Assembly (NCBI RefSeq): GCF_003353065.1
Contig: NZ_CP027806.1
Location: 1,411,353 to 1,443,352, forward strand
DNA length: 32,000 bases
Origin: Cyclonatronum proteinivorum
GTDB taxonomy: Bacteria; Bacteroidota; Rhodothermia; Balneolales; Cyclonatronaceae
Direction: 5' to 3'
Position numbers and translations under genes: made by a program. The notes below the pieces were generated by a model. The model saw only the letters and a list, made by a program, of their open reading frames with translations, ran no database searches and was not told where the DNA came from. Positions within the stretch are counted from its first letter, which is position 1. Each line of letters begins with the position of its first letter. This document shows positions 1 to 15,900 of the stretch, in pieces.

Positions 1-498
1 GCTACTGCACAAATTGTACAACAAATACAGATTGAAAGAATCACGAGCCTTGAATTTGGTCTATTGGTTCCTGATGAAACAAAATCAATCTTAGTGACCG
101 GTGCACCTGCAGGAACTCCGTCTGTTACAAGTCCAACTAGCGCCGCAAGATTTACAATAACAAAGTCGGGCATACCTGTTACTTTTACCTTGGCGCTTCC
201 TTCAGTGCTTGATGGTTTAGCAAGTACTCCAACTGAGGGCGAAACTTTAGCCTTAAACTTCGATGATACCGCAGATGGTGATAATCCAAATTTAGGCCTT
301 GTAACAGATGCCGACGGTACTAATACCTATGCATTTACCCCTGTTGATGGTGCATCTGTAGATTTAGAAACTGAAGCTTCAGCATTTGATACACTTACAA
401 CTTTTGATATTGTAATCGGTGGTACAGTTGTAGCAAGTGATACACAAGTGGCAGGAAATTACCGTGGAGTAATTACACTTACAGTTGACTACAACTAA
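1..498 (+). CDS. DUF4402 / spore-coat-protein-U-like secreted fimbrial subunit (5' end outside window)
   Basis: Frame 1 is open from base 1 (ATAQIVQQIQIERITSLEFGLLVPDE...), so the ATG at 64 is internal. The sequence is T/S/G/A/V-rich and ends ...QVAGNYRGVITLTVDYN, the C-terminal signature I associate with DUF4402/SCPU-type pilins. A PapD-like chaperone gene follows directly. It is markedly AT-richer than the neighbours. Confidence 0.7.
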   Translation, partial: ATAQIVQQIQIERITSLEFGLLVPDETKSILVTGAPAGTPSVTSPTSAARFTITKSGIPVTFTLALPSVLDGLASTPTEGETLALNFDDTADGDNPNLGLVTDADGTNTYAFTPVDGASVDLETEASAFDTLTTFDIVIGGTVVASDTQVAGNYRGVITLTVDYN

Positions 499-607
499 AT
501 CTCTTAATTCTAATCCTGATTAAGTAGATTCACAGGCCTCAAATACCTATTATGCGGTCTAAGCACTGCACTTTATATATGTTAACTGAAGCCTGACTCC
601 CGCTATC

Positions 608-1498
608 ATGATTCGTTCCGAGGAAAAGTTCCCCATGTCCCGCAAACTGCTTTCTGTAACCGGCTTTATGCTGCTGTTCGGCCTGCTGATGGTCCCGTTT
701 TGGGGCGGCAGCGCACAGCAGGCGCAGGCACAGGTCAGCCTCGCCCCGACATCTCTTTTTATATTTGAGACAGGTGGCATTGGCGAGTTATTTGTAAGTA
801 ACCGCAGTCAAATACCGCAGGAAGTGAATGTGCGGTTTGAGTTTCAGTTCCCGACCTCCGATGCGGAGGGCAACATCCGCATGACAGAAGGGGATGAGGC
901 GATTGCGGCCGAATGGGGACTGGGAGAAATGGTTCGGGTCTTCCCGAGGCGGCTCGTGCTGCAGCCGGGCGAAACACAAACCCTGCGGGTACAGGTTCGC
1001 CCGATGCGCGACCGGCCCGACGGCATGTTTTTCACCCGCGCCATTGTGAGCTCGAACGCCCTGCAGCAGGATGTCGGTCAGCAGGAAGCGGCCGAAGGCA
1101 TCCGCACGCAGATCAACTACATCCTCGAGCAGTCCATCCCCGTGTTCTACCGCAGGGGCAGCAACACCACCGGCGTGGACGTAGAACGAATCGAAGCGAG
1201 CCGTGCCGAACAGGGCCTGAACCTGCTGGTTCACCTGCAGCGCACGGGCAACAGTCCTTTTATGGGTACCATGGGTGCCCAATTGTTCGATATGAACGGC
1301 AATCAGCTTGCCGAAAGCAGCTCCTCGGCCTTCCTCTACTTTGATGAACGCCGCCGGATGACGCTTCGGCACGAGGACCTGCCCCCGGGCCGCTACCGGG
1401 TCGAGCTTTGGTTCGAAACACAGCGGCGCGACATGGCCTCGGGCAATATCGTACAGGCACCCCGCATCACCCACAGCACGATTGTAGAATTACCCTGA
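608..1498 (+). CDS. PapD-like periplasmic pilus chaperone (paralog 1)
   Basis: Signal peptide (...GFMLLFGLLMVPFWGGSAQQAQAQ) followed by a PapD/FimC-like pattern. The pattern elements are VSLAPTSLFIF...ELFVSN, VRVFPRRLVLQPGETQTLRVQVRP...DGMFFTRAIV, and IPVFYRRG (compare the FYRP motif of classical chaperones). Alternative start ATG at 635. Confidence 0.75.
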   Translation: MIRSEEKFPMSRKLLSVTGFMLLFGLLMVPFWGGSAQQAQAQVSLAPTSLFIFETGGIGELFVSNRSQIPQEVNVRFEFQFPTSDAEGNIRMTEGDEAIAAEWGLGEMVRVFPRRLVLQPGETQTLRVQVRPMRDRPDGMFFTRAIVSSNALQQDVGQQEAAEGIRTQINYILEQSIPVFYRRGSNTTGVDVERIEASRAEQGLNLLVHLQRTGNSPFMGTMGAQLFDMNGNQLAESSSSAFLYFDERRRMTLRHEDLPPGRYRVELWFETQRRDMASGNIVQAPRITHSTIVELP

Positions 1499-1534
1499 TG
1501 GAGGTTTGAGTTCAGCGTTTTTTGGACGCAGGAC

Positions 1535-1696
1535 CGGAGACGGAAGACGGAGATCAGAGATCAGAAGTCAGAGGTCAGTGGTCAGTGGTCAGAAGACGGA
1601 TGACGGATGACGGAAGCCAAAAGCCAGAGGTCGGAAGTCAGAGGTCGGAAGCCAACGGTCAAAAAACCGCGGTCTGCGGTCTGCCGTCTGCGGTCA
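1535..1696. repeat. Mosaic heptanucleotide-period tract (about 23 consecutive 7-mers)
   Basis: The tract reads GACGGAA GACGGAG ATCAGAG ATCAGAA GTCAGAG GTCAGTG GTCAGTG GTCAGAA GACGGAT GACGGAT GACGGAA GCCAAAA GCCAGAG GTCGGAA GTCAGAG GTCGGAA GCCAACG GTCAAAA ... GCGGTCT GCGGTCT GCCGTCT GCGGTC. The strict 7-bp register is kept while the word changes every 2-3 copies. Confidence 0.9.
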
Positions 1697-1746
1697 ACAC
1701 CCAAAACCTCTTCAGGAAGACACATTCACATTATTATTCCATATAT

Positions 1747-2340
1747 ATGCTATTGCAACGTAGTTCCTTTTGTGAGCGCTTTCAGCGTGCCCTGTGCGGC
1801 CTTGTGCTGCTTGCGGGTTTGCTGCTGAGCAGCGCTTTATGGAGCAGTTCAGGCATTGCGCAGGCGCAAAACGGCGATGACCCTACGACAGCGACCATCA
1901 GCGTTACGGGCACGGTCATTCTCGGCCTCACCATTGAAGGGGTGCTCGATCTCGTCTTTGATGATATCGTAGCCGGCGATCCGAAAACCATCAACCTTGA
2001 TGGCACGGCAACCGGTGCATCCGTAACCGGTGAAGAGCAGGCCGGCAAGTTCCGCATCGACACAAGGGGGAACTTCACCCTCGAGTTCGTCGATCTGCCG
2101 AACGAAATGATTGGTCCCGACGGGGCCTCCATGCCGGTGAGCTTCTTTAGCGGCTGGTCAGAAGATGATGACGGCGCCAATGCCACCAATCCTGTAGAAA
2201 CCGGCGCCCCAACGCCGGTGCTTGTACCCGAGAGCGAAGTCTTCGTCTTCCTCGGGGCAACCGTAGAACCCCCGCCCACCCAAACACTGGGGCAATACGA
2301 AACCACCGTAACCCTCCGCGCCACCTTCGGCGTGGACTAA
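1747..2340 (+). CDS. DUF4402-like secreted fimbrial subunit (second subunit)
   Basis: The start is moved to ATG 1747 (residue 76 of the tracked ORF) because the upstream 225 nt translate the heptamer tract. From 1747 there is a signal peptide (MLLQRSS...LVLLAGLLLSSALWSSSGIAQAQ). The mature part runs ISVTGTVILGLTIEGVLDLVFDDIVAG...GKFRI...TLGQYETTVTLRATFGVD, the same architecture as the first subunit. Confidence 0.65.
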   Translation: MLLQRSSFCERFQRALCGLVLLAGLLLSSALWSSSGIAQAQNGDDPTTATISVTGTVILGLTIEGVLDLVFDDIVAGDPKTINLDGTATGASVTGEEQAGKFRIDTRGNFTLEFVDLPNEMIGPDGASMPVSFFSGWSEDDDGANATNPVETGAPTPVLVPESEVFVFLGATVEPPPTQTLGQYETTVTLRATFGVD

Positions 2341-2421
2341 ACAAAGGAAACGGTCGGCAAAAACTAAAAAAGTCAGTGATTCGCAGACCCCAAAAGGATG
2401 CGAAACACTGGCTTTGGTTTT

Positions 2422-2548
2422 GAGTTCAGAGTTCGGAGTTCAAAGTTCAGAGTGATTAGTGATTAGTGATTAGTGATTAGTGATTAGTTTCTGGTTTCTG
2501 GTTTCTGACATCTGACATCTGTCTTCTGTCTTCTGTCTTCTGGATTTT
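2422..2548. repeat. Mosaic heptanucleotide-period tract
   Basis: GAGTTCA GAGTTCG GAGTTCA AAGTTCA, then GTGATTA x5, GTTTCTG x3, ACATCTG x2, TCTTCTG x3. An unbroken 7-bp register runs for about 125 bp. Confidence 0.9.
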
Positions 2549-2592
2549 GAACAAGATTTTATCGTGGTATGCATTCAATCCCAGAATATTTG

Positions 2593-2656
2593 AATCATCA
2601 AATCATCAAATCCTTGAATCTTTGAATCCTCAAATCTTTGAATCCCCGAATCCCCC
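2593..2656. repeat. Octanucleotide-period tract, AATCNNNN x8
   Basis: AATCATCA AATCATCA AATCCTTG AATCTTTG AATCCTCA AATCTTTG AATCCCCG AATCCCCC, read directly from the sequence. Confidence 0.9.
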
Positions 2657-2745
2657 TGTATCCGGCGACACCCTGACATATTGAAACACTGACATACTGT
2701 AAACCCCATATCATCCTCTTCAGTTTTCTGATCGCTTCAGCGCTG

Positions 2746-3546
2746 ATGCTGTTTCCGGCCCTGGTATGGGCGCAGATTACGATTACGCCTACCATCGTCT
2801 TCATGCATGATGGAGACCCTGCCGGGCGTATTACGATTACCAACAGTTCGGATGTGCCGCAGGAGGTGAATATCAGCCTCAGTTTTGGCTATCCGGATTC
2901 TGATGAGGCGGGAAATTTGCTGATGAATTATGAAGATGAAGAAGCGGCAGCGCGGTTCGGGCTCGATGATGTGATGCGGGTTTTTCCGCGACGCTTTGAG
3001 CTGGCGCCGGGAGAAAATCAGATCCTGCGCATGCAGGTACAGCAGGCAGGGATGCGCGCTCGCGAAGACGGGCTCCACTGGACCCGTATGAACATCACCT
3101 CCAACGAGCGCACCCGCGCCGTTGATGAGGGTGGAGCAGACCGGATCGGGGCGCGCATCAGTTACCGGATTCAGCAGAACATCGGCATTTTTTACAGGAA
3201 GGGGGAGGTCCGTACGGGCCTCGAACTGCTGCAGCTCAGCGACCGCCGCGATGCGGAAACCGGCGAGCTGCACCTCATCCCCCGCCTGCAGCGCACGGGC
3301 AACAGTCCGTTTATGGGCACCATGTTCGCAAGCCTCCGCGACGCGAGCGGCGCGGTTGTACGCGAAAGCGAGCGCACCTTCAGCGTGTACTTCACCCAAA
3401 CCCGCCCCATCACCCTCGACACCACCGACCTCCCCCCGGGCCGCTACACCGCCCGCCTCCGCTTAGAACCCACCCGTACCGACCTCAACCCCCGCGACCA
3501 AATCCCCGGCGAACCCTTAGAAATCGACCTGGAGGTCGCATGGTAA
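2746..3546 (+). CDS. PapD-like periplasmic pilus chaperone (paralog 2)
   Basis: Same pattern as paralog 1: ITITPTIVFM...ITITNSS, MRVFPRRFELAPGENQILRMQVQ, IGIFYRKG, LQRTGNSPFMGTM, DLPPGRY. The ATG at 2746 leaves only MLFPALVWAQ as a signal peptide. The frame is open back to 2677 and encodes a hydrophobic extension (IILFSFLIASAL), so the true start may be a non-ATG codon upstream. Confidence 0.7.
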   Translation: MLFPALVWAQITITPTIVFMHDGDPAGRITITNSSDVPQEVNISLSFGYPDSDEAGNLLMNYEDEEAAARFGLDDVMRVFPRRFELAPGENQILRMQVQQAGMRAREDGLHWTRMNITSNERTRAVDEGGADRIGARISYRIQQNIGIFYRKGEVRTGLELLQLSDRRDAETGELHLIPRLQRTGNSPFMGTMFASLRDASGAVVRESERTFSVYFTQTRPITLDTTDLPPGRYTARLRLEPTRTDLNPRDQIPGEPLEIDLEVAW

Positions 3547-3589
3547 ATGGGAAAGCGCACCTAAAACGCAACCGCCGAAGAGATGGAGT

Positions 3590-5125
3590 GTCGGGTTCGG
3601 GAAGTGTGGTGGGGATGGTGGGGAAGGGCTCCAAATTCGCCTCTTCAGAGGGGAATTTTGCGGGTTCTTCGCGGGAAATGGAACCGAGTAGCCATGCCAA
3701 ATTAAGCGTCCGACCTCCGAAATTACTTCCCCCCTCCGCTCTTCCCAATTCCCCTCTCGAGAGGGGTGCCCCCGGGAAAAAGTCTTTCGAAGGCAAAAAT
3801 GCCGGAACAGCCCCCAATTTTAAAATAGCCCTTATGCCATTGGGGCGGGGTGTGGAAATGTTGTCAAGTGGGAAGGCCCCCGAAATTACCACGAAAGCCG
3901 GTTACACGCACCGCGTACCCAACATCGAGAGCAATGATGTACCGGGTTGTGCCGGGGCCCCGTGCCCTCCACACCCCGCCCGTTCGCTGCGCTCACCGGG
4001 GCACCCCTCTCGAGAGGGGAATTTTTCTGGTTCTTCGAAGAAAGTTGAACCGAAAGACCTTGCCAAATTAAGCGTCCGACTTCCGAAATTACTTACCCCC
4101 TCCGCTCTCCCCAATTCCCCTCTCGAGAGGGGTGCCCCCGGGAAAAAGTCTTTCGAAGTCACAAAGATCAGAACAGCCCCCAATTTCAAAATGGCCCTTA
4201 TGCCATCGGGGCGGGGTGTGGAAATGTTGTCAAGAGGGAAAAACCCAATTATCACCCCGAAAGCAAGCAACACGCACCACGTACCCCACATCGAGAGCTA
4301 TGATGTGCCGGTAGGTGCCGGGGTCATGTGCCCTCCACACCCCGCCCGTTCGCTGCGCTCACCCGGGCACCCCTCTCGAGAGGGGAATTTTGCTGGTTCT
4401 TCGCAGAAAGTAGAACCGAAGCACCTTCCCAAATTAAGCGTCCGACTTCCGAAAGTAATTACCCCCTCCGCACTCCCCAATTCCCCTCTCGAGAGGGGTG
4501 CCCCCTGGAAAAATTTGTTCAAATGCAAAAAAGCCAGGACAGCCCATAATTTAAAAATGGCCCCGAAGCCATCGGGGCGGGGTGTGGAAATGTTGTCAAG
4601 TGGGAAGGCCCCCGAAATTACCACGAAAGCGGGTTACACGCACCACGTACCCAACATCGAGAGCAATGATGTACCGGGTGGTGCCGGGGTCTCGTGCCCT
4701 CCACACCCCGCCCGTTCGCTGCGCTCACCCGGGCACCCCTCTCGAGAGGGGAATTTTTCTGGTTCTTCGAAGAAAGTTGAACCGAAGCACCTTCCCAAAT
4801 TAAGCGTCCGACTTCCGAAAGTAATTACCCCCTCCGCACTCCCCAATTCCCCTCTCGAGAGGGGTGCCCCCGGGAAAAAGTCTTTCGAAGTCACAAAGAT
4901 CAGAACAGCCCCCAATTTCAAAATGGCTCCGTTGCCAATGGGGCGGGGTGTGGAAATGTTGTCAAGTGGGAAAAACCCAATTATCACCCTGAAAGCCTGC
5001 AACGCGCACCACGTACCCCACATCGAGAGCAATGATGTTCCGGGTTGTGCCGGGGTCTCGTGCCCTCCACACCCCGCCCGTTCGCTGCGCTCACCCGGGC
5101 ACCCCTCTCGAGAGGGGAGTTTTGC
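3590..5125. repeat. Tandem array of a 366-bp unit (~4.2 copies) carrying 8 perfect copies of the palindrome CCCCTCTCGAGAGGGG plus one degenerate copy
   Basis: Perfect palindromes lie at 3751, 4117, 4483 and 4849 (flank orientation B) and at 4004, 4370, 4736 and 5102 (flank orientation A). A degenerate A copy lies near 3638. All same-type spacings are exactly 366 bp. Extended ~23-28-bp flanks (GGGCACCCCTCTCGAGAGGGGAATT) are inverted between the A and B sites. Confidence 0.95.
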
Positions 5126-5189
5126 CAATCCCGCCGCGGTCTGCCGGCTGCGGTCTGCCGTCCTGGTCCCTTTATTGCTGCTGATTTTC

Positions 5190-8141
5190 ATGATGGGGTT
5201 CATCCTTCCCCTTTCCCCATCTCCCCAAAACACGGCATCCGCTTCAACCTCAGCTTCTTTCTTCTTCGACGATACGGATGAAGTGGTGCTCATTTTTAGC
5301 TATCCGGCGGTGGGGCGGGTGTATGTTACGGCTTTGTTCGATTACAATCAGAATGAGCTGCTGATTCCGGTTACGGAGATGTTTACGCTGCTGGGGGTAA
5401 ATTTTTCGCGCGGGGAGACGCAGCGGAATGTGATCGAGGGCGTTTTTCTGACCAACGGGGAGCGGTATTCGATGAATTTCGATAATTTCAGCATCATCAA
5501 GGGCGGGCGGCGGTATGAGTTTGATGCGGAGCGTATGCACTCCGGGGCCCTGGATTTTTACCTCACGCCTGATGTGTGGGAAGATGTGTTCGGGCTGGAA
5601 TTCTCCTTTAATTTCAGCGCGCTGAGTCTGTCGCTGCGCACCGAGCGTATCCTTCCCATAGAGGAGCGCCGGCAGCGGGAGCAGGCGCGGCAGCGGATTG
5701 AGGCCCTGGATTTCGGGCGGTCTTTTAACCCGCTGCTGTTTCCGCGGGAGCGCTCGGTTGTGCGGACCGGCTTTTTGGATTACAACCTGAGTGCCTCGAG
5801 TCTGGTGAACGAACAGCTCCAGAATTACAGCTACAGCTTTATTGGCGGCGGGGAGTTTCTGGGCGGCGATATACAGGGCTCCCACGTTGGGGGCTACACC
5901 GCCGACGGGCAGTGGTTTAACCGTACGAGTAACCTGCGCTGGCGCTATGTGATGCCGGATAATCCGTTTGTGACGACCCTCACCGCGGGGCAGATCAGTA
6001 CCGGCGGTATTAACAGTACGCGGATTCGCGGGCTTTCGATGACCAACGAGCCGGTCGAGTCCCGGCAGCTGTATGGCACCTATGTGCTGGAAGGCCGGGC
6101 CGAGCCGGACAGTGAAATTGAACTCTATTTCAACAACCGCCTGCTGGAGTACACCCGGGCCGACGGCCTCGGGTTTTATCGTTTTGAAGTGCCGCTGCGC
6201 TACGGCACGACCCGCCTCGAAACCCGCATCTACACCCCGAGCGGCGCAATGGAAGTAAGTGAGCGGCAGATTCAGGTGCCTTTTGTGTTCCTGCCGCCGG
6301 GTCAGGTGCAGTACAATCTGGAAGGAGGGGTGCTCGATCAGACTTTTGGGGCGAGCGGCACCAACGTAGCGGCGCATGGCAACGTCGCCTACGGACTAAA
6401 CAGCTGGCTCACGACCCGCGCCGGTATGGAGTACAATGAGTTTGAGAGCGAGGTGCCCAACGCTTACGGCTCCCTCTCGGCCCGCGTATTCTCGCAGTAT
6501 CTGGTGAATGTCGATCTCGTACCTAATGCGTTTTACCGGGCACAGAGCAGCGTCGTGTTTGCCTCAAGCCGCAGCATTGCCGCAACCTATACCTGGTTCG
6601 ATGGTGATTCCCGCTTTAATACGCGGCAGGCGACCGATCAGCTCACTCTGAATTTTTATACGCCCATCCCGTTTTTCAGCAGTTTCAATGCCGGGGTGCG
6701 GTTTTCCGGGGATGTGGTGCGCTACAGCTGGGGCAGCGAAACCCGGGGTTCGGGCGATTTGTTTTTTCGCCTGATGGATGTAAACCTGCGCTTCAACTAC
6801 CGCAATACCCTCATTCAGAGCGGCAGCAGCCTTTCAAGGGGCAACGGGCAGCTTACGGCCACCGGCTCCTACACCATTCCGAGGCAGTCGGTGCTGCCCC
6901 GGCCTTTCCGGAGCGTGTTTCTGCGCGGATCGCTGGTGTATGATGAGCGGCTGAATCAGATTCGCTCCGTAGATGCACAGCTTTCCCGTAATATCGGACG
7001 GATTGGCCGTTTTAATGTGGGGATGACGCGGCAGCTGCTCAACAACATCACCATTGTGCAGGGCGGGCTTAGCCTGGATTTGGGGGGCAAGGTGCGTTCA
7101 TCGACTGATTTCCGCGGGGCATCCGGCAACTACAACCTGCGGCAGGGGCTGCGCGGCTCGGTCGGTTTCGATGATCAGGCAACCTATCTGCAAGCCACGG
7201 ACCGTCAGCAGGTCGGGCGTTCAGCGGCTTCGGTTGTGCTTTTCATCGATAACAACAACAGCGGTACCTTCGATGAAGGCGACGAGCTGCTGCCCTATGC
7301 CGCCGTTCGTCTCGACCGTTCGGCAAGCAGCCGGGTTGGCAGGGACGGTATTCTGCGCCTCACGCAGCTGCAAAGCTATTACCGCTACAATCTCGAAATC
7401 AACCGTAACGCCATCCCGCATCCGCTGCTCGTGCCGGCCAAAGATCAGTTCAGTTTTGTGGCCGATCCGAATCAGTACAAGCGCATCGAAATCCCGTTTT
7501 ACCGCTCCGGCGTGATCGACGGCGAAGTGCTGATCCGCCGGGCCGGCGAAACCGAAGGGCAGGGCGGGATGCGGCTGCTGCTCAGCGGAATTGATCACGA
7601 TTATTCCGAAGTTATCCGTACATTCTTTGGTGGCGGGTTTTATGCAATGGATATCCCTCCGGGCCGCTACACCCTCGAAGTTGATCCCGGTCAGCTGGAT
7701 TTCCTCGGTCTCGTTCCGTTTGACGGGCTTACGGAATTTGAAATACGTGCCCTTGCTGACGGCGATTTTGTTGAAGATATTCGTATCATGCTGGTTCCGC
7801 CCGGAGAAGCATTTGTGCCCGTAACGGCGGAAAGTTTACTTGAACAAGAGCTTTTTGATGAATTGAAGGCGTCCAAACAGGATGCCATCCGGAATTATGT
7901 ACGCGCACAGCATCTTATCTATACGCAGGATTTCAGGGCGGCTTTACAGGCCATTGACGCCTCGCTCCGAATATTCGAAACAGATCACGGACTTGCACTC
8001 CGGGGTACCATTCTGTATCTGCTGGGCGACCGCGATGAAGCGCGCAGGCACTGGCTGCGTGCAAATGAGCGGAATCCCGATATACCGATCCCCAGTACCG
8101 AACTGCTTGACCTGATGATAAGAAACCAAGGGCAGCGCTAA
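5190..8141 (+). CDS. Usher-like outer-membrane pilus assembly protein with C-terminal CarboxypepD_reg-like and TPR modules
   Basis: The tracked ORF formally starts at 3540, but its first ~1.6 kb is the repeat array (see findings). I start at ATG 5190; TTG 5175 is also possible. An usher-like plug/barrel pattern is present: TAGQISTGGINSTRIRGLSMTNEPVESRQLYGTYVLEGRAEPDSEIELYFNNRLLEYTRADGLGFYRFEVPLRYGTTRLETRIYTPSGAMEV. Long beta-rich Y/F/N/S/R sequence follows, then GVIDGEVLIRR...IPPGRYTLEVDP. The tail is TPR-like (FRAALQAIDASLRIFETDHGLALRGTILYLLGDRDEARRHWLRANERNPD). The gene sits downstream of subunit and chaperone genes. Confidence 0.6.
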   Translation: MMGFILPLSPSPQNTASASTSASFFFDDTDEVVLIFSYPAVGRVYVTALFDYNQNELLIPVTEMFTLLGVNFSRGETQRNVIEGVFLTNGERYSMNFDNFSIIKGGRRYEFDAERMHSGALDFYLTPDVWEDVFGLEFSFNFSALSLSLRTERILPIEERRQREQARQRIEALDFGRSFNPLLFPRERSVVRTGFLDYNLSASSLVNEQLQNYSYSFIGGGEFLGGDIQGSHVGGYTADGQWFNRTSNLRWRYVMPDNPFVTTLTAGQISTGGINSTRIRGLSMTNEPVESRQLYGTYVLEGRAEPDSEIELYFNNRLLEYTRADGLGFYRFEVPLRYGTTRLETRIYTPSGAMEVSERQIQVPFVFLPPGQVQYNLEGGVLDQTFGASGTNVAAHGNVAYGLNSWLTTRAGMEYNEFESEVPNAYGSLSARVFSQYLVNVDLVPNAFYRAQSSVVFASSRSIAATYTWFDGDSRFNTRQATDQLTLNFYTPIPFFSSFNAGVRFSGDVVRYSWGSETRGSGDLFFRLMDVNLRFNYRNTLIQSGSSLSRGNGQLTATGSYTIPRQSVLPRPFRSVFLRGSLVYDERLNQIRSVDAQLSRNIGRIGRFNVGMTRQLLNNITIVQGGLSLDLGGKVRSSTDFRGASGNYNLRQGLRGSVGFDDQATYLQATDRQQVGRSAASVVLFIDNNNSGTFDEGDELLPYAAVRLDRSASSRVGRDGILRLTQLQSYYRYNLEINRNAIPHPLLVPAKDQFSFVADPNQYKRIEIPFYRSGVIDGEVLIRRAGETEGQGGMRLLLSGIDHDYSEVIRTFFGGGFYAMDIPPGRYTLEVDPGQLDFLGLVPFDGLTEFEIRALADGDFVEDIRIMLVPPGEAFVPVTAESLLEQELFDELKASKQDAIRNYVRAQHLIYTQDFRAALQAIDASLRIFETDHGLALRGTILYLLGDRDEARRHWLRANERNPDIPIPSTELLDLMIRNQGQR

Positions 8142-8148
8142 CGAAACG

Positions 8149-10221
8149 ATGAAACCAACATTTTGTATGTTTGACAGGGCAAACGATGCAGTTATGATAA
8201 TCAGACCTCAGATTACACGTGTACAACAACGTATGCTTAAGCGCGAAAAAAGTCGTAAACGGCGTTTTTGGATTGCCATTGCAATTGTAGTCGCCCTATG
8301 GGGGGTACTGATGGCGCCCGCTTTGCTGTGGGCGGGCAGCCCTTTTACACAGGTGTCTTCTGATACGGTAACCCTAACGCCCTTTAGTTTCGACCCGCAG
8401 CAGGGCAACCTGTCAGATACCATTGCTGACCCCGCTTCTGATGCGGTGGTCAGCATTGCTGCCGCGACGGCTCTTGAGCGCTCTGAGCGCGAACAGCGGC
8501 TCGACCGGCTCATCCAAAGTGCGATGGTCAACTTTTTTGATTCCGGTACTTTTTTGGTAGATACCAAGGTTTCGCTGGAGTTTGTGCCGGTGCAGCGGCC
8601 CAACGGGGAGCAGGGCGGCGGCGGGGCTGTGAGTCCGGTGCGCGAAAATCTGCCCGGTTTGCCTGGCGTGCCCATGTATCTGCTGCGTTCAAGTGAAGCC
8701 CCCTCTGAAGGCGGACTGACCGAGTACAGCCTTGAGCTCCGCCGTATAGAAGTTGAAATGCTCGTTGACTCGGATTATACCGCAGATGAAATCAATTTTG
8801 TAGATCAGCTGATTCGGGCAACGGCCAAAATTGACGACGCCCGCGGCGACCGTGTCACCATCACACGCTCCTCCTTCCCGCAGCGCCGCACAGCACAGAA
8901 CGGCACCGCCCCAACCGTACAGCCATTGCCCGACACCTTCCCGGGGCCTGATGCCCTGCAGGAGCGTCCGCCGGTACCTCCTATGGAAGTGCCGCTATGG
9001 GAGCAGATTTTAGCGGAACCCCTCTATTGGATTCCCCTGCTCATGCTGTTTGGGTTATTCATTGGTTTTTTAATATGGCTGCTCACCCGTAAGCGCGATG
9101 AGCGCGACAAAGAACCCATGAGCCGTCCGGATGCGCCTGCACCGCCACCGGTCATGCCGCCCATCGGTGAAGCTGTACACCCGGATACGCTTGCGCGGAA
9201 AAAGCGGGAAATGGAAAAGCGGGAGCAGGCCAGAGAAAACGACTACGCGACCTATCTGTTGGAGCAAATCATGCAGTATCCGCCGGAGATGGCGCGCCTG
9301 TTTGAATCGTGGATGAAAAAAGAAGGCGAAAAAGGTCTTATGAAGGCGGCACACATCCTGCTGCTCACCGATCCCAAGCTCGTGCGGGTGCTCAAGCCCG
9401 CCATGACCGAGGAGCGGTTTAACGCGCTAAAAGCCCGTGTTGAAGCCTCCGGTGAACAGCCGGGGGAGGAAGCCATGAAAGAGCTGCGCAACCTCACGCG
9501 CTATCTGAAAGCCCGTACGCAGGAAAATACGGTACGCCGCGGGCTGCGTGCCCTCAACGATTTCGACTTCGTACAGCATGAAGATGACGATCGCCTGCTG
9601 CTGCATCTCATAGATTACGAACCGCGCGAAATTGCCATCATCCTGAGTCACCTTGAGAGCAAGCGTGCGGCCCTCATGCTGCGGGAGTTCGAACCCGAAA
9701 AATCGCAGCAGGTCATGCTTGAGCTTCCTAAAGTGAAAAATACCGATTATGAGACCTACCGCAGTCTGGCCGAAGACTTTTTTAACCGCATCAGTACGGA
9801 TACGGACGATGATGAGCGGTTTAAGGAAAGCGATGTAGCAGAAACGGTGAAGCTGATTGAATCGCTGCCGCTGCGTCAGCAGGAAGAAACGAGCGAGCGT
9901 TTTATGCGTGAGGAAAACCCCTACGCCGCAGCCGTTACAAGCCGCATGATTACCTTCATGACGCTCTCAACGGTGAGTGATGATATCATTACGGAAGCCA
10001 TTCAGCCGATTGGCACCGAACAGCTCGGGCTGGCCCTGGCAGGTATGGATTCCGAAACGGCATTCCGGCTCATCAGCCTGCGTCCGGAGCGCGAGCAGAT
10101 GGTGCTGCATTCCGAAATGGAAAATGCGGCCGTAGTCAGCGATGAGAAAATCAATGAAGCCAAGAACAGCCTGCTCAACCGAATCCGCGCAACTGCGCGC
10201 AGCAAACAGCAAACGGTTTAG
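8149..10221 (+). CDS. Two-TM inner-membrane protein: FliF/YscJ-like periplasmic segment fused to a FliG-like (FliG_M/FliG_C or MgtE_N-like) cytoplasmic domain
   Basis: TM1 is about 8266-8333 (WIAIAIVVALWGVLMAPALLWA) and TM2 about 9022-9087 (LYWIPLLMLFGLFIGFLIWLL). The periplasmic part ends YSLELRRIEVEMLVDSDYTADEINFVDQLIRATAKIDDARGDRVTITRSSFP, resembling the end of the FliF ring domains. The cytoplasmic part has YEPREIAIILSHLESKRAALMLREFEPEKSQQVMLEL (compare the EHPQ-region of the FliG middle domain). It also has LGLALAGMDSETAFRLISLRPEREQMVLHSEMEN...INEAKNSLLNRIR (compare the FliG C-terminal torque-helix region). Alternative starts at 8167, 8194 and 8233. Confidence 0.6.
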   Translation: MKPTFCMFDRANDAVMIIRPQITRVQQRMLKREKSRKRRFWIAIAIVVALWGVLMAPALLWAGSPFTQVSSDTVTLTPFSFDPQQGNLSDTIADPASDAVVSIAAATALERSEREQRLDRLIQSAMVNFFDSGTFLVDTKVSLEFVPVQRPNGEQGGGGAVSPVRENLPGLPGVPMYLLRSSEAPSEGGLTEYSLELRRIEVEMLVDSDYTADEINFVDQLIRATAKIDDARGDRVTITRSSFPQRRTAQNGTAPTVQPLPDTFPGPDALQERPPVPPMEVPLWEQILAEPLYWIPLLMLFGLFIGFLIWLLTRKRDERDKEPMSRPDAPAPPPVMPPIGEAVHPDTLARKKREMEKREQARENDYATYLLEQIMQYPPEMARLFESWMKKEGEKGLMKAAHILLLTDPKLVRVLKPAMTEERFNALKARVEASGEQPGEEAMKELRNLTRYLKARTQENTVRRGLRALNDFDFVQHEDDDRLLLHLIDYEPREIAIILSHLESKRAALMLREFEPEKSQQVMLELPKVKNTDYETYRSLAEDFFNRISTDTDDDERFKESDVAETVKLIESLPLRQQEETSERFMREENPYAAAVTSRMITFMTLSTVSDDIITEAIQPIGTEQLGLALAGMDSETAFRLISLRPEREQMVLHSEMENAAVVSDEKINEAKNSLLNRIRATARSKQQTV

Positions 10222-10286
10222 CCAGTCCGGTAAACCACGGCTTAGCCCAACTTCTAATTTTCTAATCTTAATGGTGTAAGGCGTAC

Positions 10287-10808
10287 ATGCTTAGTAAATC
10301 CCCATCCGGTCTGAATGGCTTCCTGCCAGCCCTGACTGCTGTCCTGCTGCTCCTGCTGCTGGTCGGATGCAGCTCCTCCGGCACGGCCGTACCGGCAGGG
10401 AGTGAGGGCGGAGATCCTCAGGCGGCGGAAGACGTACTGCAACGCCGTACGCTTGAAGTGGCAGATACCTCCGCGGCGCAGGCATCGCAGGATTCTGTTA
10501 CCGAAGCAGAAGAGGTCCGGCTGAGCTCCCGTTTTGTTGAAGAGGCGTTTGCGGACTACGCACAGCGGACCAACACCAAGCTCACCCTCTTTTTTCAGGC
10601 ACAGCAGCGCTACCATGCCGGGCAGTATGTGGAAGCGCTGCGGCTCATAAACCGCGCCCTGGAGTGGGGCGAAAGCGCCGATGCCCTTGCCATGAAAGGA
10701 CTGATATTTGCCGGTCTTCAGGCCGAAGAGCAGGCCATTAGCTACTGGCAGCGCGCCATTGCGCTCGATCCGGATGTGTTTGAGCGCATCCTGCTACCCC
10801 GCGAATAG
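10287..10808 (+). CDS. TPR-repeat lipoprotein
   Basis: Lipobox LLLLVGC after a hydrophobic leader. The C-terminal half is TPR-like (QQRYHAGQYVEALRLINRALEWGESADALAMKGLIFAGLQAEEQAISYWQRAIALDP). Confidence 0.7.
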   Translation: MLSKSPSGLNGFLPALTAVLLLLLLVGCSSSGTAVPAGSEGGDPQAAEDVLQRRTLEVADTSAAQASQDSVTEAEEVRLSSRFVEEAFADYAQRTNTKLTLFFQAQQRYHAGQYVEALRLINRALEWGESADALAMKGLIFAGLQAEEQAISYWQRAIALDPDVFERILLPRE

Positions 10809-10874
10809 CAAGCAGAAGTACCACAGAAACGAACGCAGGTGTGATCCCTTAAACTGAACCCCAAAAACTGAACC

Positions 10875-11693
10875 ATGCGCATATCCTGGGCTACCGTAAT
10901 CTGCATCCTTGTGTTTGGCTTTTTGCTTGTACTCTCCGTACTGCAAACGCTGGATGTTGTGCAGATTGTCCGATTCCCGTCCGCCCTTGATTTTCTGAAT
11001 CTGCCGAGCGTAGGCATCGTGGCCGGCGGGGTTATGCTGCACGTGCTTATCTCGTATCCTTTCTATGAAATCAGGCGTGCGTTAGTCGCTTTCATACACG
11101 TGTTTTCGGAAAGTGCCCTCGACAGGGAAACGTTTAAGAACGATCGCAGGCGTATTCTGGAATGGCAGCGCCTGTACCGCGACAACCGCAATAAAACACG
11201 TAAAGAGCTGGCCGAACAGCTCAGCGATACGTTTGAAGGCTACGTTTTTACCCTGCTGAATACCAACTACAGCCGGGATGAAATTCTGGATATGGGCGGC
11301 ATCAAAATTGAAGAGCGCTACAACGATACGGTACAAACTTCGCGGGTTTTCCAAACCATGGGTACAGCCGCGCCGGCAATCGGGATGCTGGGGACGCTTA
11401 TGGGGCTCATCATCATGCTGGCCAATTTTCAGGATGCCGAGCAGCTCGGTCTCGGGCTTTCATTTGCCCTCATGACAACGCTGTACGGTCTGGTGCTGGC
11501 GCATTTGCTGATGTTTCCGCTGGCAACCAAGTTCAGGGTAATGGCGCAGCATCAGTACTTCCGGGAGCGGGTGATGCTGGAAGGCATCCTCATGCTGCAC
11601 GAGGGCAAACCACCGCTCATGATTTATGACAAGCTCGGTGCTTTCATTTCAACCCTGAAAGACGATACCAAAGATTTTGCGCCCACCGGCTGA
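10875..11693 (+). CDS. MotA/TolQ/ExbB proton-channel family protein (MotA-like stator subunit)
   Basis: Two N-terminal TM helices, a charged cytoplasmic loop, then the family signature TMGTAAPAIGMLGTLMGLIIML...LSFALMTTLYGLVLAHLLMFPLATKF. At 272 aa it has no long ZorA-type tail. A MotB-like gene follows directly. Confidence 0.85.
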   Translation: MRISWATVICILVFGFLLVLSVLQTLDVVQIVRFPSALDFLNLPSVGIVAGGVMLHVLISYPFYEIRRALVAFIHVFSESALDRETFKNDRRRILEWQRLYRDNRNKTRKELAEQLSDTFEGYVFTLLNTNYSRDEILDMGGIKIEERYNDTVQTSRVFQTMGTAAPAIGMLGTLMGLIIMLANFQDAEQLGLGLSFALMTTLYGLVLAHLLMFPLATKFRVMAQHQYFRERVMLEGILMLHEGKPPLMIYDKLGAFISTLKDDTKDFAPTG

Positions 11694-11756
11694 CCATGGC
11701 ACGGTATCTCTATTTCAATATCTATATCATAAACCAGCTACGCGTACAATCACAGC

Positions 11757-12419
11757 ATGCGATTCCGTCCTACCGATGATAATGAAGGCTTCACCAATGA
11801 GTCCTGGCAGACGAGCTTCCTCGATATCTTTATGCTGCTGCTCGCCTTTTTTATTATCCTGGCCGGGCTGGCCCGCTACGACATGCGTATTTTTGATGAC
11901 GACGCCCGCGGCCTGCGTTCTCTGATTCAGGGTACCATGCGGGTGCAGACCCCGATAGATGAGCTGCGGTTTGATATGCAGGATGCGCTCTCTGCTGAAA
12001 TCGGGAGTCAGATGCTGCAGCTCGATAGCGACCGCGATGAAATGCGCCTGAGTTTCACCGATGCCCGTTTTTTTGAAACGGCCCGCGCGGAGCTGCTACC
12101 GGAAGGCAAGGCGCTGATAGACCGCATTATGGAAGTCATGGCCGAGCTCAAATTCTATCAGTATTACATTGATGTTGAAGGCCATACCGATAACCGGCCC
12201 ATCAGCACTTTACAGTTTCCCTCCAACTGGGAGCTCTCCGCGGCCCGTGCCTCCAACATCATCCGCTATTTTATGGAGCAGGGCTTCGAACCGTCCCGCC
12301 TCAAAGCCAGCGGCTACGCCGAAACCCGCCCAATTGTACCCAATCAGGACGAATTCGGCAACGACCTCCCCGACAATCAGGCCCTGAACCGCCGGGTTGT
12401 GATCCGGATTTATTATTGA
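11757..12419 (+). CDS. MotB-like stator subunit with OmpA-type peptidoglycan-binding domain
   Basis: The N-terminal TM has the conserved channel Asp (SFLDIFMLLLAFFIIL; GAT at 11823-11825). The C-terminal OmpA-like domain reads VEGHTDNRPI...FPSNWELSAARASNIIRYF...SGYAETRPI...NRRVVIRI. Confidence 0.85.
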   Translation: MRFRPTDDNEGFTNESWQTSFLDIFMLLLAFFIILAGLARYDMRIFDDDARGLRSLIQGTMRVQTPIDELRFDMQDALSAEIGSQMLQLDSDRDEMRLSFTDARFFETARAELLPEGKALIDRIMEVMAELKFYQYYIDVEGHTDNRPISTLQFPSNWELSAARASNIIRYFMEQGFEPSRLKASGYAETRPIVPNQDEFGNDLPDNQALNRRVVIRIYY

Positions 12420-12892: not shown

Positions 12893-12924
12893 GTGCTTTT
12901 GTCACTGGCAAAAGCACTTTTTTT
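12893..12924 (+). terminator. Terminator-like hairpin plus T7 run abutting the first ATG of the protease ORF
   Basis: GTGCTTTTG (12893-12901), loop TCACTGG, CAAAAGCAC (12909-12917), then TTTTTTT (12918-12924). The ATG follows at 12925. Confidence 0.5.
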
Positions 12925-15900
12925 ATGTTTAATGTACCAATAATAAACTCTATGATCTCAAAATCTATAAGATTTAAGGTATTGATTCTGAGTGCTTTGG
13001 CATTTCTTCTTATGATCCCTGCAGGCCTGCAGGCACAGGAAGAAATCAAATGGCACGAAGGATATATCAAAATTAAACTTGCGCCGCAGGCAAACGATCT
13101 GCTTCAGCGCACGAGCCTCGCGGATAACCCGCAGCTAACCGGAATCGAGGCTGTGGATGCCCTGCATCAGCAGTTCAATGTGCTCAGCATGGAGCAGGTG
13201 TTCGTTACCGACCCCCGCTTTGCCGAGCGTCATCGCCGTCACGGCCTCGACCGCTGGTTCCGCATTCAGTTTGATGCTTCTGCTTCAGAAGATCAGGTTA
13301 TCAGCAGCTACAGTGCACTGCCCGAAATTGAAGTGGCAGAAAAAATTTATGTACGGCATCTTATTGCTGACCCTGTAAGCTCACAGGAACTGTTTGAAAG
13401 TATTCAGAACTTCGACGATCCCCGTCTTGATGAGCAGTGGCACTACAATAACACCGGTCAGACCGGCGGCAACCCCGGTTCTGATATCAGCCTGTTTCAG
13501 GCCTGGGGTCTGGAAACCGGGAATTCAGATGTCATCGTCAAAGTCATGGACAGCGGTATCGATCTGAACCATCCTGATCTTGAAGAAACCTTTTGGGATA
13601 ACCCCGTGCCCGGCCCCGAAAACGGATTCGACGGCGATGTGCACGGCTGGAATTTTGTAAACAACACCCCTGATATTCAGGATCAGAACAATCACGGTAC
13701 ACACGTATCCGGTACGATTGCAGCCCGCAACAACAACGGAGTCGGAGTAGCCGGTATCGCTGGTGGTGATGAAAATGGTCCTGGTGTCAAGATTATGACC
13801 GCGCGCGTTTTCTCCGGCGCTGGTGATACGCCGGGCGGCTTCCCGCAGGGCTTTGTGTACGGGGCCGATAACGGTGCAGCCATCTCCAACAACAGCTGGG
13901 GCGGCGGCGGTTTCTCGCAGGTGCTTAACGACGCCATCGACTACTTTATCGAAAATGCGGGTTTTGACGCCGATGGCAACCCCTGGGGTCCAGTACAGGG
14001 CGGTCTGGTTTTCTTTGCCGCCGGTAACAACGGCTCTTCAAGCCCGAGTCAGCCAATTGCTTCTAACCCCGATGTAATTGCGGTTGCCTCAACCAATCAC
14101 AACGATCAGAAAGCCTGGTACTCGCAGTTTGGTACGTGGATTGATATTTCCGCGCCCGGTGGTGAAACCAATTCAGCAGCCAATCAGGGTGTACTGAGCA
14201 CAACCCGCAACAATGGGTACGCCTTCTTTCAGGGTACGTCCATGGCTTCCCCCCATGCTACTGGTGTAGCGGCTTTGGTTGCTTCGAGATTTCCGGGCAG
14301 CACCGCCGATGAAATCTACGGACGCATTCTTTTCACCGTTGACGACATCGAAGACGCCCTTGCCCCAACCCATCAGGGGTTGATGGGCGCCGGACGTATT
14401 AACGCTTTCCGCGCGCTTGAAGAAGACGACGGCGTGCCGCCTGCTACGGTTACAGACCTGACCTCGGTCGGGATGCCCGCAGAGAATTTCGTCACGCTGA
14501 GCTGGACTGCACCGGGCAGCAGCGGCGATGAAGGTCAGGCGTTTCTGTACGATCTGCGTATCTCCCAAAGCCCGATCACTGCCGATAATTTTGAGAATGC
14601 CGACGAACTTGAGATCGGACGCCCCGCTGCCGCAGGTGCGACGGAAATGGTTGACGTGACCGACCTTAGCCCGCAGACAACCTACTATTTCGCGCTTAAA
14701 GCCCGCGACCTCTTCGGTAACTTCAGCGATATTTCTAATGTAATTGAAGTAACAACAGACGGCTCGCCCGCCATCGCGCTGAGCGCTACGCAGTTTAGCA
14801 GTGAAATTGCCGTAGGCGATACGGAAGAGCAAACCCTGGTAATTACCAACACCGGTGAAGGGCTGCTGACCTACACCTTCCCTTCATTCCTGCAGAATAC
14901 CGCGCTCACCAACGAAAACGGCGCCCTCCTGAAAACGCAGGCCGCTTTCAACCCTACCGCTGCAGATCTTCGGCAGGCCGCACAGCGCCTGATCATTGCA
15001 CAGCATGACAGCGGACAGCTTACCCGTCCAAACAGCTATCAGCGCTCCGTGATTGAGGCCGTGCAGCAGCTGCGCGCTTCTGAAGTAAGTCAGCCAGCCG
15101 CTGCGCCCGCTGATGCTTCCGTCATCATTGAGTTTGAAGCACTGTCTGCCTCAGGCGGTGAATTTTTTAATGTAACGGATGAAGGTTATTCGGGTGAACT
15201 GACAGCCGTTCGCGGCGACTTCGTGCTCAACAGCGGCCCGGGTGCCCTTTGGGCTAGTGACTTCGCGGTTCTGCTTACAACCGAGGAAGAAATCAACAGC
15301 AGTACCGTTGTGCTGCAGGTCGGCGGATTTTCTGATTTCGGACCCTCCGGCACGCGCATTCCCTGGGGCGTGGGCAACAGCGGCCCGGGAACACCGGTCA
15401 ACACGACCATCACCCTCCCCACTCCGCTGGAAATGGATGATCTGTATGTCTGGATCGGAAACGGCTGGGCGACCGGCGGCCTTGGCGAATGGGAAGGACT
15501 CGTTGAGCTGATTGGCGCTTCTGATTCCCCCGGCTTTGTGTCTTCAATTAGCCCTGCCGCTGGCTCTATCCCTGTTGGTGGCAGCACTGAAGTAACCATC
15601 ACCTTTGATGCTACCGAAATCGTTGCCGGTGTGTATGAATCTTCTACACGCCTGCTCAGCAATGATCTGAGCAACCCGCTTACCATGATCGACTTCTTCC
15701 TGCAAACAGAGGGCGGTGAACCCGTTCTTGAGGCTTCTGAGGAAGAGCTGGCATACGGTAATCTGTTCCGCAACGAATCCAGCACCCTGTCCTTTACCCT
15801 TACCAATACCGGGACTGCGCTGGCAAATGTTGGTGAAATTATCATCAGCGATGATGCATATGTGAGCAGCAACGCAGGTGATTTCCTGCTCGCGCCCGGA

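Follow-up and report, generated by a model that had tools for sequence, protein, structure and literature searches.

A block of nine co-directional plus-strand genes, which lies at positions 1 to 12419 of a 32,000-nucleotide stretch of the genome of Cyclonatronum proteinivorum (contig NZ_CP027806.1, positions 1,411,353 to 1,443,352; the whole of this stretch is referred to as the window), brings together the genes of a chaperone-usher pilus and those of a flagellar-type rotor and stator. On balance, and with a confidence a little better than even, we read the block as encoding one envelope-spanning machine, in which an ion-driven rotor and stator, with the usher as their outer-membrane partner, would do mechanical work on the usher-fibre. 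A wider proposal is put forward more tentatively: a core of rotor and stator, coupled by tetratricopeptide repeat (TPR) adaptors to interchangeable outer-membrane barrels, may represent an unrecognised class of ion-driven rotary envelope machine without type III export, rod, hook or filament, which powers a fibre in Cyclonatronum and its relatives.

An earlier note, made from the letters of the window, had described the genes in the order pilin, chaperone, pilin, chaperone, usher, rotor, TPR lipoprotein, MotA and MotB. All nine are real according to the open reading frame (ORF) listing and translation of the window, and the order was borne out by Pfam and NCBIfam hidden Markov models (HMMs) together with fold, less firmly for the two chaperones than for the rest; the gaps of 7, 65, 66 and 63 nt which it gave after the usher are exact. 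The FliG, MotA, MotB and DUF4402 proteins that it had named were matched by HMMs, and its usher was confirmed by fold, not by Pfam.

The rotor protein

The sixth gene encodes a protein, hereafter the rotor, in which the Pfam models FliG_C (41.7 bits) and FliG_M (36.1 bits) both matched over their cut-offs and YscJ_FliF_C reached 22.4 bits against a cut-off of 23.8; the FliG equivalog TIGR00207 scored 57.6 bits, its cut-off being 226.7. An AlphaFold model based on a 60-sequence alignment (predicted local distance difference test, pLDDT, 80) begins with a positively charged N-terminus and a transmembrane (TM) helix at about residues 40-62, followed by a periplasmic alpha-beta-beta-alpha-beta domain (108-241), a second TM helix (291-318) and an all-helical cytoplasmic part (345-689). 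In Foldseek searches the cytoplasmic part matched full-length FliG (3hjl, 8wiw, 9n49) at an E value of about 1e-7 (9e-8) over some 320 columns, and the periplasmic domain matched the RBM3/S-ring of FliF (7d84, 8zdt, 6scn; E ~3e-4, target TM-score ~0.5). RBM1 and RBM2 are absent from the modelled protein, which has a single ring-building domain between both membrane helices. By its predicted structure, the rotor is a naturally occurring protein in which the membrane anchors and last ring-building domain of FliF are joined to a complete FliG (N, M and C domains). Engineered FliF-FliG fusions are reported to assemble into rings (PMC11481574).

In an alignment to Thermotoga maritima FliG, rotor residues R648 and E656 fall on the torque-helix Arg and Glu, which we take to be the equivalents of R281 and D289 in Escherichia coli; across 33 distinct rotors the conservation of R645, R648 and E656 is at least 90%. 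The same degree of conservation (at least 90%) was found in the family for two periplasmic motifs, LPGLP (168-172) and RGD (232-234). The FliM-binding EHPQR motif is not conserved in the rotor family.

The stator and the TPR lipoprotein

The full-length best NCBIfam matches of the MotA-like protein were all flagellar (MotA, MotP and PomA, 90-119 bits), with ExbB at 22 and TolQ at 18 bits, and it matched the structures of PomA and MotA at E 1e-21. Neither stator subunit reached its equivalog cut-off (119 vs 237 bits for MotA, 131 vs 283 for MotB). T174, T201 and T202 of MotA align to T158, T185 and T186 of PomA, with at least 90% conservation over 26 stators of the family; P167 and P215 are also conserved. 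The three PomA threonines form a Na+ site that is reportedly shared by all Na+-driven stators (PMC10374538), and on sequence grounds the stator is probably Na+-coupled. Such a stator fits its host because C. proteinivorum, a soda-lake haloalkaliphile of the order Balneolales, grows at high pH and high Na+: this obligate alkaliphile grows at pH 8.5-10.5, with an optimum of 9.5-10, and at 0.3-3 M Na+, with an optimum of 1 M (PMC6243061). The MotB-like protein matched MotB_plug at the cut-off (24.0 bits), OmpA with 63 bits and the family models MotD, MotS and MotB; its transmembrane Asp23 is at least 90% conserved. At locus L014 the MotB is 570 aa in length and carries a SPOR domain.

The TPR lipoprotein lies between the rotor and MotA at every locus surveyed, and every relative read has the lipobox Cys.

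The usher and its TPR tail

NCBI names the identical C. proteinivorum protein 'fimbria/pilus outer membrane usher protein'. Taken as a sequence, the window usher had no Pfam Usher match and found nothing in the set of solved structures by sequence or profile search, and PF00577 matched in five of 40 usher relatives. An AlphaFold model of the usher was built from 40 relatives (pLDDT 83.6), and its best 18 PDB matches in Foldseek were all FimD or PapC, with E values from 4e-27 to 7e-14, alignments of 740-950 columns and target TM-scores up to 0.60. At the level of the predicted fold, the window protein is confirmed as an usher of FimD/PapC architecture.

In the model the usher domains are followed by extra beta-sandwich domains and then by five helices (920-1018 of the 1023-aa translation) which make up a TPR tail, and Pfam placed a TPR_2 match there. 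Tail and TPR lipoprotein are homologues, with, for instance, 34% identity to the lipoprotein of L008 in an alignment of 110 aa (E 1e-15); the tail is carried by 34 of 117 usher relatives. Motor genes follow in all six of the tailed ushers examined, whereas the two untailed ushers examined, from Fodinibius salsisoli (L009, 867 aa) and from a member of the Saprospiraceae (L016, 853 aa), both stand with pilins and a chaperone and have no rotor or stator genes. The idea of the earlier note that TPR modules bridge the two halves of the system has thereby gained comparative support, the tail being homologous to the lipoprotein and seen only where rotor and stator genes follow.

C-terminal additions vary across the usher family of the Bacteroidota, Balneolota and Rhodothermota, in which SPOR, OmpA or TPR tails, or none, are found (P0025, P0039, P0042, P0043, P0052, P0108 and P0117, amongst others). 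The SPOR and OmpA tails on other ushers suggest that tails serve anchoring. At L012 a small barrel protein of 388 aa (8741-9907, with a weak OMP_b-brl match) ends in the same tail, 43% identical over 100 aa to that of the window usher, just before the rotor, TPR and MotAB genes, which suggests that the tail is a portable docking module.

Pilins and chaperones

Pilin 1 matched DUF4402 with 29.2 bits, over the Pfam cut-off of 25.2, and pilin 2 with 19.6 bits (E 0.0015), under it; nine of 17 pilin relatives also matched. A C-terminal G-x-Y...T(L/V)..Y motif is common to pilin 1 and 16 relatives, with which pilin 2 could be aligned, and this G-x-Y...T-V-x-Y pattern presumably recalls that of spore-coat-U (SCPU) pilins. 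Sequence and profile searches of the set of solved structures found no relative of the pilins.

Chaperone 1 (gene 2) had no Pfam match; it is 40% identical to chaperone 2, is conserved in L001, L002 and L009, and scored 431 bits with our own family HMM. Chaperone 2 (gene 4) matched PapD_N at E 6.7e-4, with 20.1 bits against a cut-off of 23. Its motifs RVFPRR..L.PG..Q..R, GLxWTR and FYRKG can be aligned with IVTPPLF, SLFWMNV and LYYRPA of what we take to be the FimC sequence, at an hhalign E value of 0.13, which is not significant; a profile of the chaperone family, searched against the solved structures, found no chaperone.

Conservation of the gene order

The order pilins, chaperone(s), usher, rotor, TPR lipoprotein, MotA, MotB recurs in six lineages, those of the window, L001/L002, L006, L013, L014 and L015, across which usher identity ranges from 36 to 87% and rotor identity from 21 to 74%. 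Usher and rotor identities are respectively 87% and 74% in Cyclonatronum and Balneolales metagenome-assembled genomes (MAGs; L006/L007), 64% and 40% in the sequencing-run assemblies L001/L002, 51% and 23% in GCA_003555385.1 (L013), 36% and 27% in a member of the Balneolaceae (GCA_054603225.1, L014), and 37% and 21% in a further sequencing-run assembly (L015). Intergenic gaps at these loci are often of a few nucleotides or negative, the genes overlapping, and the locus assignments were confirmed by a survey of 45 loci with eight core-family HMMs of our own. The adjacency which the earlier note had singled out is not unique to this genome, as the same order persists down to rotor identities of 21-27%. 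Chance adjacency of pilus and motor genes was rejected, the synteny being conserved. The closest relatives of the rotor are from Candidatus Cyclonatronum and Balneolales MAGs, and a scan of genome contigs with exact rotor motifs had one Balneolales MAG among the matches listed.

The wider rotor family

A word-indexed homologue search with the rotor found five proteins, to which a 60-sequence profile added almost none; the family was revealed by an exhaustive HMM search of 1.84 billion representatives, in which the rotor profile found 857 proteins with E values up to 1e-3, of which 194 fell at or below 1e-10 and 94 at or below 1e-30. Most members are 580-700 aa long and were matched end to end. 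Among 60 of them FliG_C was matched in 60, FliG_M in 51, FliG_N in 36 and YscJ_FliF_C in 20.

The largest subfamily (type B; 51 of about 150 representatives) is organised as a five-gene operon of about 5.5 kb, comprising the rotor, a 358-aa protein here termed p358, the TPR lipoprotein, MotA and MotB. This operon was found in L008, in L011 (10001-15025) and in 27 of 28 marine and other metagenome loci (L017-L043; guanine plus cytosine content 34-42%), the metagenome loci having been retrieved with an alignment of this subfamily; one other alignment gave no relatives. Pilin, chaperone and usher genes are all missing within 10 kb of the five-gene operons, and in the 15 loci with full flanks no gene besides the five core genes is conserved. 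In one clade the operon stands directly after rpoB-rpoC. The p358 protein combines a signal peptide and a conserved N-terminal domain with an alternating pattern in its C-terminal part, which ends in ...RF, with a terminal Phe, and OMP_b-brl was weakly matched in four of ten members; from its sequence we infer an outer-membrane barrel with a periplasmic domain. With hhalign no relationship between p358 and the usher family was found, and p358 had no match in the set of solved structures. As judged from these gene sequences, the rotor-TPR-MotAB core is not specific to pili. The reading of the earlier note needs amending on this point: the pairing of motor and pilus recurs in six lineages, but the largest branch of the core has no usher within 10 kb.

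A proposed machine and its alternatives

Sequences and models show what each part is, that the topology of the rotor resembles that of FliF, that the residues of the torque helix and the ion path are conserved, as is the order of the genes, and that usher tail and motor genes occur together. The machine that we propose would work as follows. MotA and MotB would form a 5:2 stator, as their flagellar homologues do, with the OmpA-like domain of MotB on the peptidoglycan, and this stator would act on a ring of the FliF-FliG fusion protein, ring formation being expected by homology. Ion flow, probably of Na+, would turn this minimal rotor via the charged torque helix of FliG_C, again by analogy with the flagellar homologues. 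The outer-membrane half would be an archaic-type chaperone-usher system composed of DUF4402 pilins, diverged PapD-like chaperones and an usher of FimD/PapC fold, and the TPR modules, namely the free lipoprotein and the periplasmic C-terminal tail of the usher, would link the inner-membrane motor to the outer-membrane barrel, as the comparative data suggest. Contacts of these modules with the periplasmic ring of the rotor, with MotB or with the usher are speculative, and it is equally a matter of speculation that the motor might turn, extrude, retract or gate the usher-fibre complex, or move the usher laterally. Such a pilus would be energy-coupled, unlike classical chaperone-usher pili.

A number of points weigh against a powered usher-fibre. 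Classical ushers need no energy source; a flexible lipoprotein linker would be a poor torque shaft, and no rod-like component is present. Both chaperones would be very diverged PapD-like proteins, an assignment which is weak on the sequence, and no confident counterparts of E. coli R90 and E98 could be assigned in MotA, as the alignment is ambiguous in the charged loop. The correlation between tail and motor is a small sample of eight contexts, six against two, and the usher-free state of the largest branch implies that the usher may be only an anchor, not the driven part. Finally, a single transcript for all nine genes is doubtful because a 1.6-kb repeat array with terminator-like hairpins interrupts the block and a promoter-like match (8171-8198) stands at the junction of usher and rotor.

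A rival reading is that of an autonomous envelope machine, which would tether or maintain the envelope or move outer-membrane proteins as in gliding, and for which the usher, with its TPR docking tail, would be an anchor, pilus assembly remaining energy-independent. The largest rotor subfamily, in five-gene operons without pilus genes within 10 kb, speaks for such a machine, as do p358, a barrel protein with a signal peptide, the small OMP_b-brl protein of L012 which bears the usher's tail, and the SPOR and OmpA tails on other ushers. However, it would leave unexplained why the motor genes stand immediately 3' of the usher, often overlapping it, in six lineages; it also leaves the task of the machine open, and the anchor and driven roles of the usher are not mutually exclusive. 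We regard it as unlikely, but as deserving serious consideration. The lack of a rod or shaft component to carry torque over the periplasm could be accounted for if the motor module were a sensor or regulator, in which a stator-like channel and a FliG-like ring report load, or gate ion flux, on attachment of the pilus, and flagellar stators are indeed known load sensors. This we hold to be decidedly improbable, as no signalling output domain (kinase, cyclase or PilZ) occurs in any of the five core proteins and the conserved charges of the torque helix and residues of the stator ion path point to force generation.

That these are the ordinary fliF, fliG and motAB genes of a regulon located elsewhere, or relics of a lost flagellum left beside a pilus operon, is very improbable in our judgement. 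The domains are unmistakably flagellar, the Joint Genome Institute (JGI) labels family members 'flagellar motor switch protein FliG', and some Balneolaceae have been described as flagellated. Nevertheless the rotor is a fusion with one RBM domain and neither RBM1 nor RBM2, its FliG equivalog score (57.6 vs 226.7) and that of MotA (119 vs 237) fall far short of the cut-offs, and EHPQR is not conserved. Lipoprotein and barrel partners recur, and no other flagellar gene was found with our core-family HMMs in any of the 45 loci surveyed. FliM/FliN, the type III export apparatus, rod, hook and filament are likewise absent from the 32-kb window and from beside the core genes in the Pfam-annotated loci L001-L016; the statement of the earlier note that the 32 kb hold no further flagellar component held up in HMM scans of the window, which included the ORFs of 12.9-30.5 kb. 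At least 194 diverse full-length representatives retain invariant functional residues, and the family is on this account under purifying selection and not decaying. Rhodothermus and Salinibacter are flagellated. As a weak proxy, hits to the COG category 'cell motility' number 21 in Cyclonatronum, 52-72 in Rhodothermus and Salinibacter and 10 in Balneola (PMC6243061), and the species description in the same paper makes no mention of motility or flagella. Least credible is the notion that the MotAB-like pair belongs to a Zorya anti-phage system or is an energiser of Tol/Ton type. MotB does match ZorB models (70.9 bits) and MotA, weakly, ZorA (16.6 bits), but the latter match covers the channel core only, the 272-aa MotA does not have the long ZorA tail, and ZorC, ZorD and ZorE are missing; the flagellar stator models score far above ExbB (22 bits) and TolQ (18 bits), and a FliG partner identifies the pair as being of the flagellar type. 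Both were effectively refuted by the stator scores and the absent Zor partners.

Repeat DNA, gene starts and transcription

Between chaperone 2 and the usher lie 1.6 kb of repeat DNA, in which Tandem Repeats Finder identified a 366-bp repeat in 4.1 copies (score 2214, 87% matches). Each 366-bp unit bears two perfect CCCCTCTCGAGAGGGG palindromes, eight being present in the window against none expected by chance, and three of them are terminator-like with a T-rich tail; a second Cyclonatronum species (L006, 323-338 and 827-842) has the palindrome upstream of its usher as well. The array may be an attenuator which sets the ratio of pilin to usher, or else a mobile repeat. Because it keeps one frame open, it gives rise to a spurious ORF (3540-8141) of 1533 aa. 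This ORF was rejected as the usher, its N-terminal third being translated tandem repeat: the usher part of the long ORF taken as the gene in the earlier note is sound, the first ~1.5 kb of it is tandem-repeat DNA, and the usher starts near 5172-5190.

Dense tandem repeats with units of 7, 14, 16, 21 and 24 nt (e.g. GAGGTCA, GAGTTCA, AGTGATT and TTCTGTC) were also seen at 1543-1651 and 2422-2653. The first of these tracts falls in the spurious 5' part of ORF 1522-2340; pilin 2 is a real gene, as the earlier note had it, although the start at 1522 is unlikely and that at 1747, which is followed by a signal peptide ending in AQAQ, is the most likely. Slipped-strand phase variation of the fibre genes could arise at such short tracts. 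The rotor may begin at M1, at M16 (8194, the choice of NCBI) or at M29 (8233, as in its relatives), and the best sigma-70-like match of the region (8171-8198, TTGACA-16-TATGAT, 11/12), which is a match to consensus only, falls within the rotor gene as annotated, at its 5' end and just upstream of M29. From its sequence this could be a promoter of the motor genes' own. An Rfam scan of the window had no match, and so no riboswitch was seen upstream of the pilin genes.

Table 1. Features of the nine-gene block; positions are those of the window.
Feature	Position	Strand	Basis and remarks
Pilin 1, DUF4402 type	1..498	+	5' end cut by window edge; DUF4402 over Pfam cut-off
Chaperone-like protein 1	608..1498	+	296 aa, signal peptide; similarity to chaperone 2
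Short tandem repeats, 7- and 14-nt units	1543..1651	.	Tandem Repeats Finder; upstream of pilin 2
Pilin 2, DUF4402 type	1747..2340	+	Likely start 1747 (MLLQRSS...); DUF4402 below cut-off
Heptamer, 16-nt and 24-nt tandem repeat tracts	2422..2653	.	Spacer between pilin 2 and chaperone 2
Chaperone-like protein 2	2746..3546	+	Start uncertain, signal peptide reaches upstream of ATG; PapD_N below cut-off
366-bp tandem repeat, 4.1 copies	3640..5125	.	Tandem Repeats Finder; between chaperone 2 and usher
Outer-membrane usher, 983 aa by NCBI start	5190..8141	+	Alternative TTG near 5172; FimD/PapC fold (model)
Usher C-terminal TPR tail, putative coupling module	7827..8138	+	Model helices 920-1018; TPR_2 match
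Rotor protein, predicted FliF(RBM3)-TM-FliG fusion, 690 aa	8149..10221	+	FliG_M and FliG_C above cut-off; Foldseek
Rotor periplasmic RBM3-like domain, aa 108-241	8470..8871	+	Flanked by TM1 (aa 40-62) and TM2 (aa 291-318)
Rotor FliG_C torque-helix equivalent, aa 645-662	10081..10134	+	Alignment to T. maritima FliG
TPR lipoprotein, 173 aa	10287..10808	+	Lipobox LVGC, Cys28; TPR_1 and TPR_2 above cut-off
MotA-like stator A subunit, 272 aa	10875..11693	+	MotA_ExbB 70 bits
MotB-like stator B subunit, 220 aa	11757..12419	+	MotB_plug and OmpA matches
Terminator-like hairpin after block	12893..12917	+	11-bp stem then T7; consensus match only

Genes around the block

A giant adhesin-like gene lies upstream of the pilins at L009 (3422-6415), L014 (1-3532), L015 (1-6679) and L016 (3081-6938), immediately so in L009, L015 and L016, and is present with or without motor genes. 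The proteins are of 1000 to more than 3600 aa, with Gly_rich_2, Invasin_D3, Laminin_G_3 or PATR domains; those of L009, L014 and L016 carry a tail for type IX secretion, and none is recorded in L015. The window begins inside pilin 1, so the position of such a gene falls outside it.

The genes after the block are unrelated to it and encode an S8 peptidase with a type IX secretion system (T9SS) tail, an S10 peptidase, an MFS transporter, a PFL-like enzyme and hydrolases. The S8 subtilase, which directly follows the block (12925-17931), is a 1668-aa protein that bears HYDIN/VesB-like Ig domains and, at its C-terminus, a type IX secretion domain. An S8 peptidase is also found 3' of the block in L006, with one opposite-strand gene between them, and this neighbourhood probably reflects shared ancestry within the genus, not functional linkage. 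On the minus strand at 23900-26182 is a PFL-like glycyl-radical enzyme (PFL-like 705 bits, Gly_radical 135 bits); C. proteinivorum has been described as obligately aerobic (PMC6243061), yet the window encodes this enzyme.

Significance and comparison with known systems

If the proposed machine is real, it would be the first energy-coupled chaperone-usher pilus, breaking the textbook rule that these fibres are assembled free of energy, and chaperone-usher fibres could undergo powered extension, retraction or rotation. It would also mean that a flagellar rotor and stator pair works, and so could have evolved, independently of a secretion system; a stepwise, modular origin of the flagellum could then be tested directly on a FliF/FliG/MotAB module that functions without type III secretion. 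A 2025 survey found rotor proteins in ~11% of non-motile species and left the use of "half a motor" as a question (PMC12199754), for which the rotor family, with its five-gene core, at least 194 representatives and a cultured host (strain Omega), is a concrete test object. A minimal rotor of one protein together with its stator is also attractive for structural work and for synthetic nanomachines. Only three rotary motors driven by proton-motive force are listed in a review (PMC9127263), and in a 2025 phylogeny the flagellar-type stators form one flagellum-associated clade (PMC12505986). A literature search, with subscription-only papers outside its scope, returned no description of a FliG-like/MotAB/usher cluster and no mention of 'DUF4402'.

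With the flagellar motor the system shares a four-TM MotA with a large cytoplasmic domain and PomA-type threonines, a MotB with plug, channel Asp and OmpA-like peptidoglycan anchor, the N, M and C domains of FliG with the Arg and Glu of the torque helix, and an RBM3-type domain between two TM helices. It differs in that FliF and FliG make up one polypeptide with a single RBM domain and EHPQR is not conserved, and in that FliM/FliN, export apparatus, rod, hook, filament and L/P rings are found neither in the cluster nor, with our core-family HMMs, in the 45 loci; the partners are instead a TPR lipoprotein and an outer-membrane barrel.

The likeness to chaperone-usher pili, both those of FimD and PapC and those of the archaic or sigma class (Acinetobacter Csu and the spore-coat-U system of Myxococcus), lies in the N-terminal domain, barrel, plug and C-terminal domains of the usher, in putative two-domain chaperones with PapD-like motifs and in small DUF4402 pilins with signal peptides. 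Here, however, the usher has extra beta-sandwich domains and a TPR tail, inner-membrane motor genes follow it (as seen in the gene context), and the pilins, chaperones and usher are too diverged in sequence for most curated cut-offs.

Amongst other ion-driven machines, GldLM/PorLM of gliding and the T9SS is likewise an inner-membrane motor of the 5:2 family, found in Bacteroidota and relatives, which energises an outer-membrane adhesin machine, as described in two reviews (PMC9127263, PMC9389320). There, GldM is itself the periplasm-spanning shaft and no FliG rotor exists, whereas here a flagellar-type stator would act on a FliG domain and no shaft is evident. The Tol-Pal and ExbBD-TonB systems also combine a motor of the MotAB family with a peptidoglycan or outer-membrane partner and a TPR protein in one operon, that of the tol-pal operon being CpoB/YbgF. 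No TolA- or TonB-like spanning protein is present in the system described here, and a FliG-type rotor is.

Periplasmic TPR proteins which position MotB-type stators are known from the Campylobacter-type motors, where PflA and PflB are scaffolds of a complete flagellum, and these we liken, by role, to the TPR lipoprotein and the usher tail as a precedent for a contact with MotB. The engineered FliF-FliG fusions of Salmonella and Vibrio resemble the rotor in that a covalent chain is reported still to form MS/S-rings (PMC11481574; bioRxiv 10.1101/2023.02.06.527414), but those are laboratory constructs with a full-length FliF in a complete flagellum, and the fusion here is natural, shortened and in a non-flagellar context. 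With parts drawn from known superfamilies, the system as a whole fits no known kind, falling outside the definition of a flagellum by what is missing from the window and the surveyed loci, and departing from that of a chaperone-usher pilus by its gene context.

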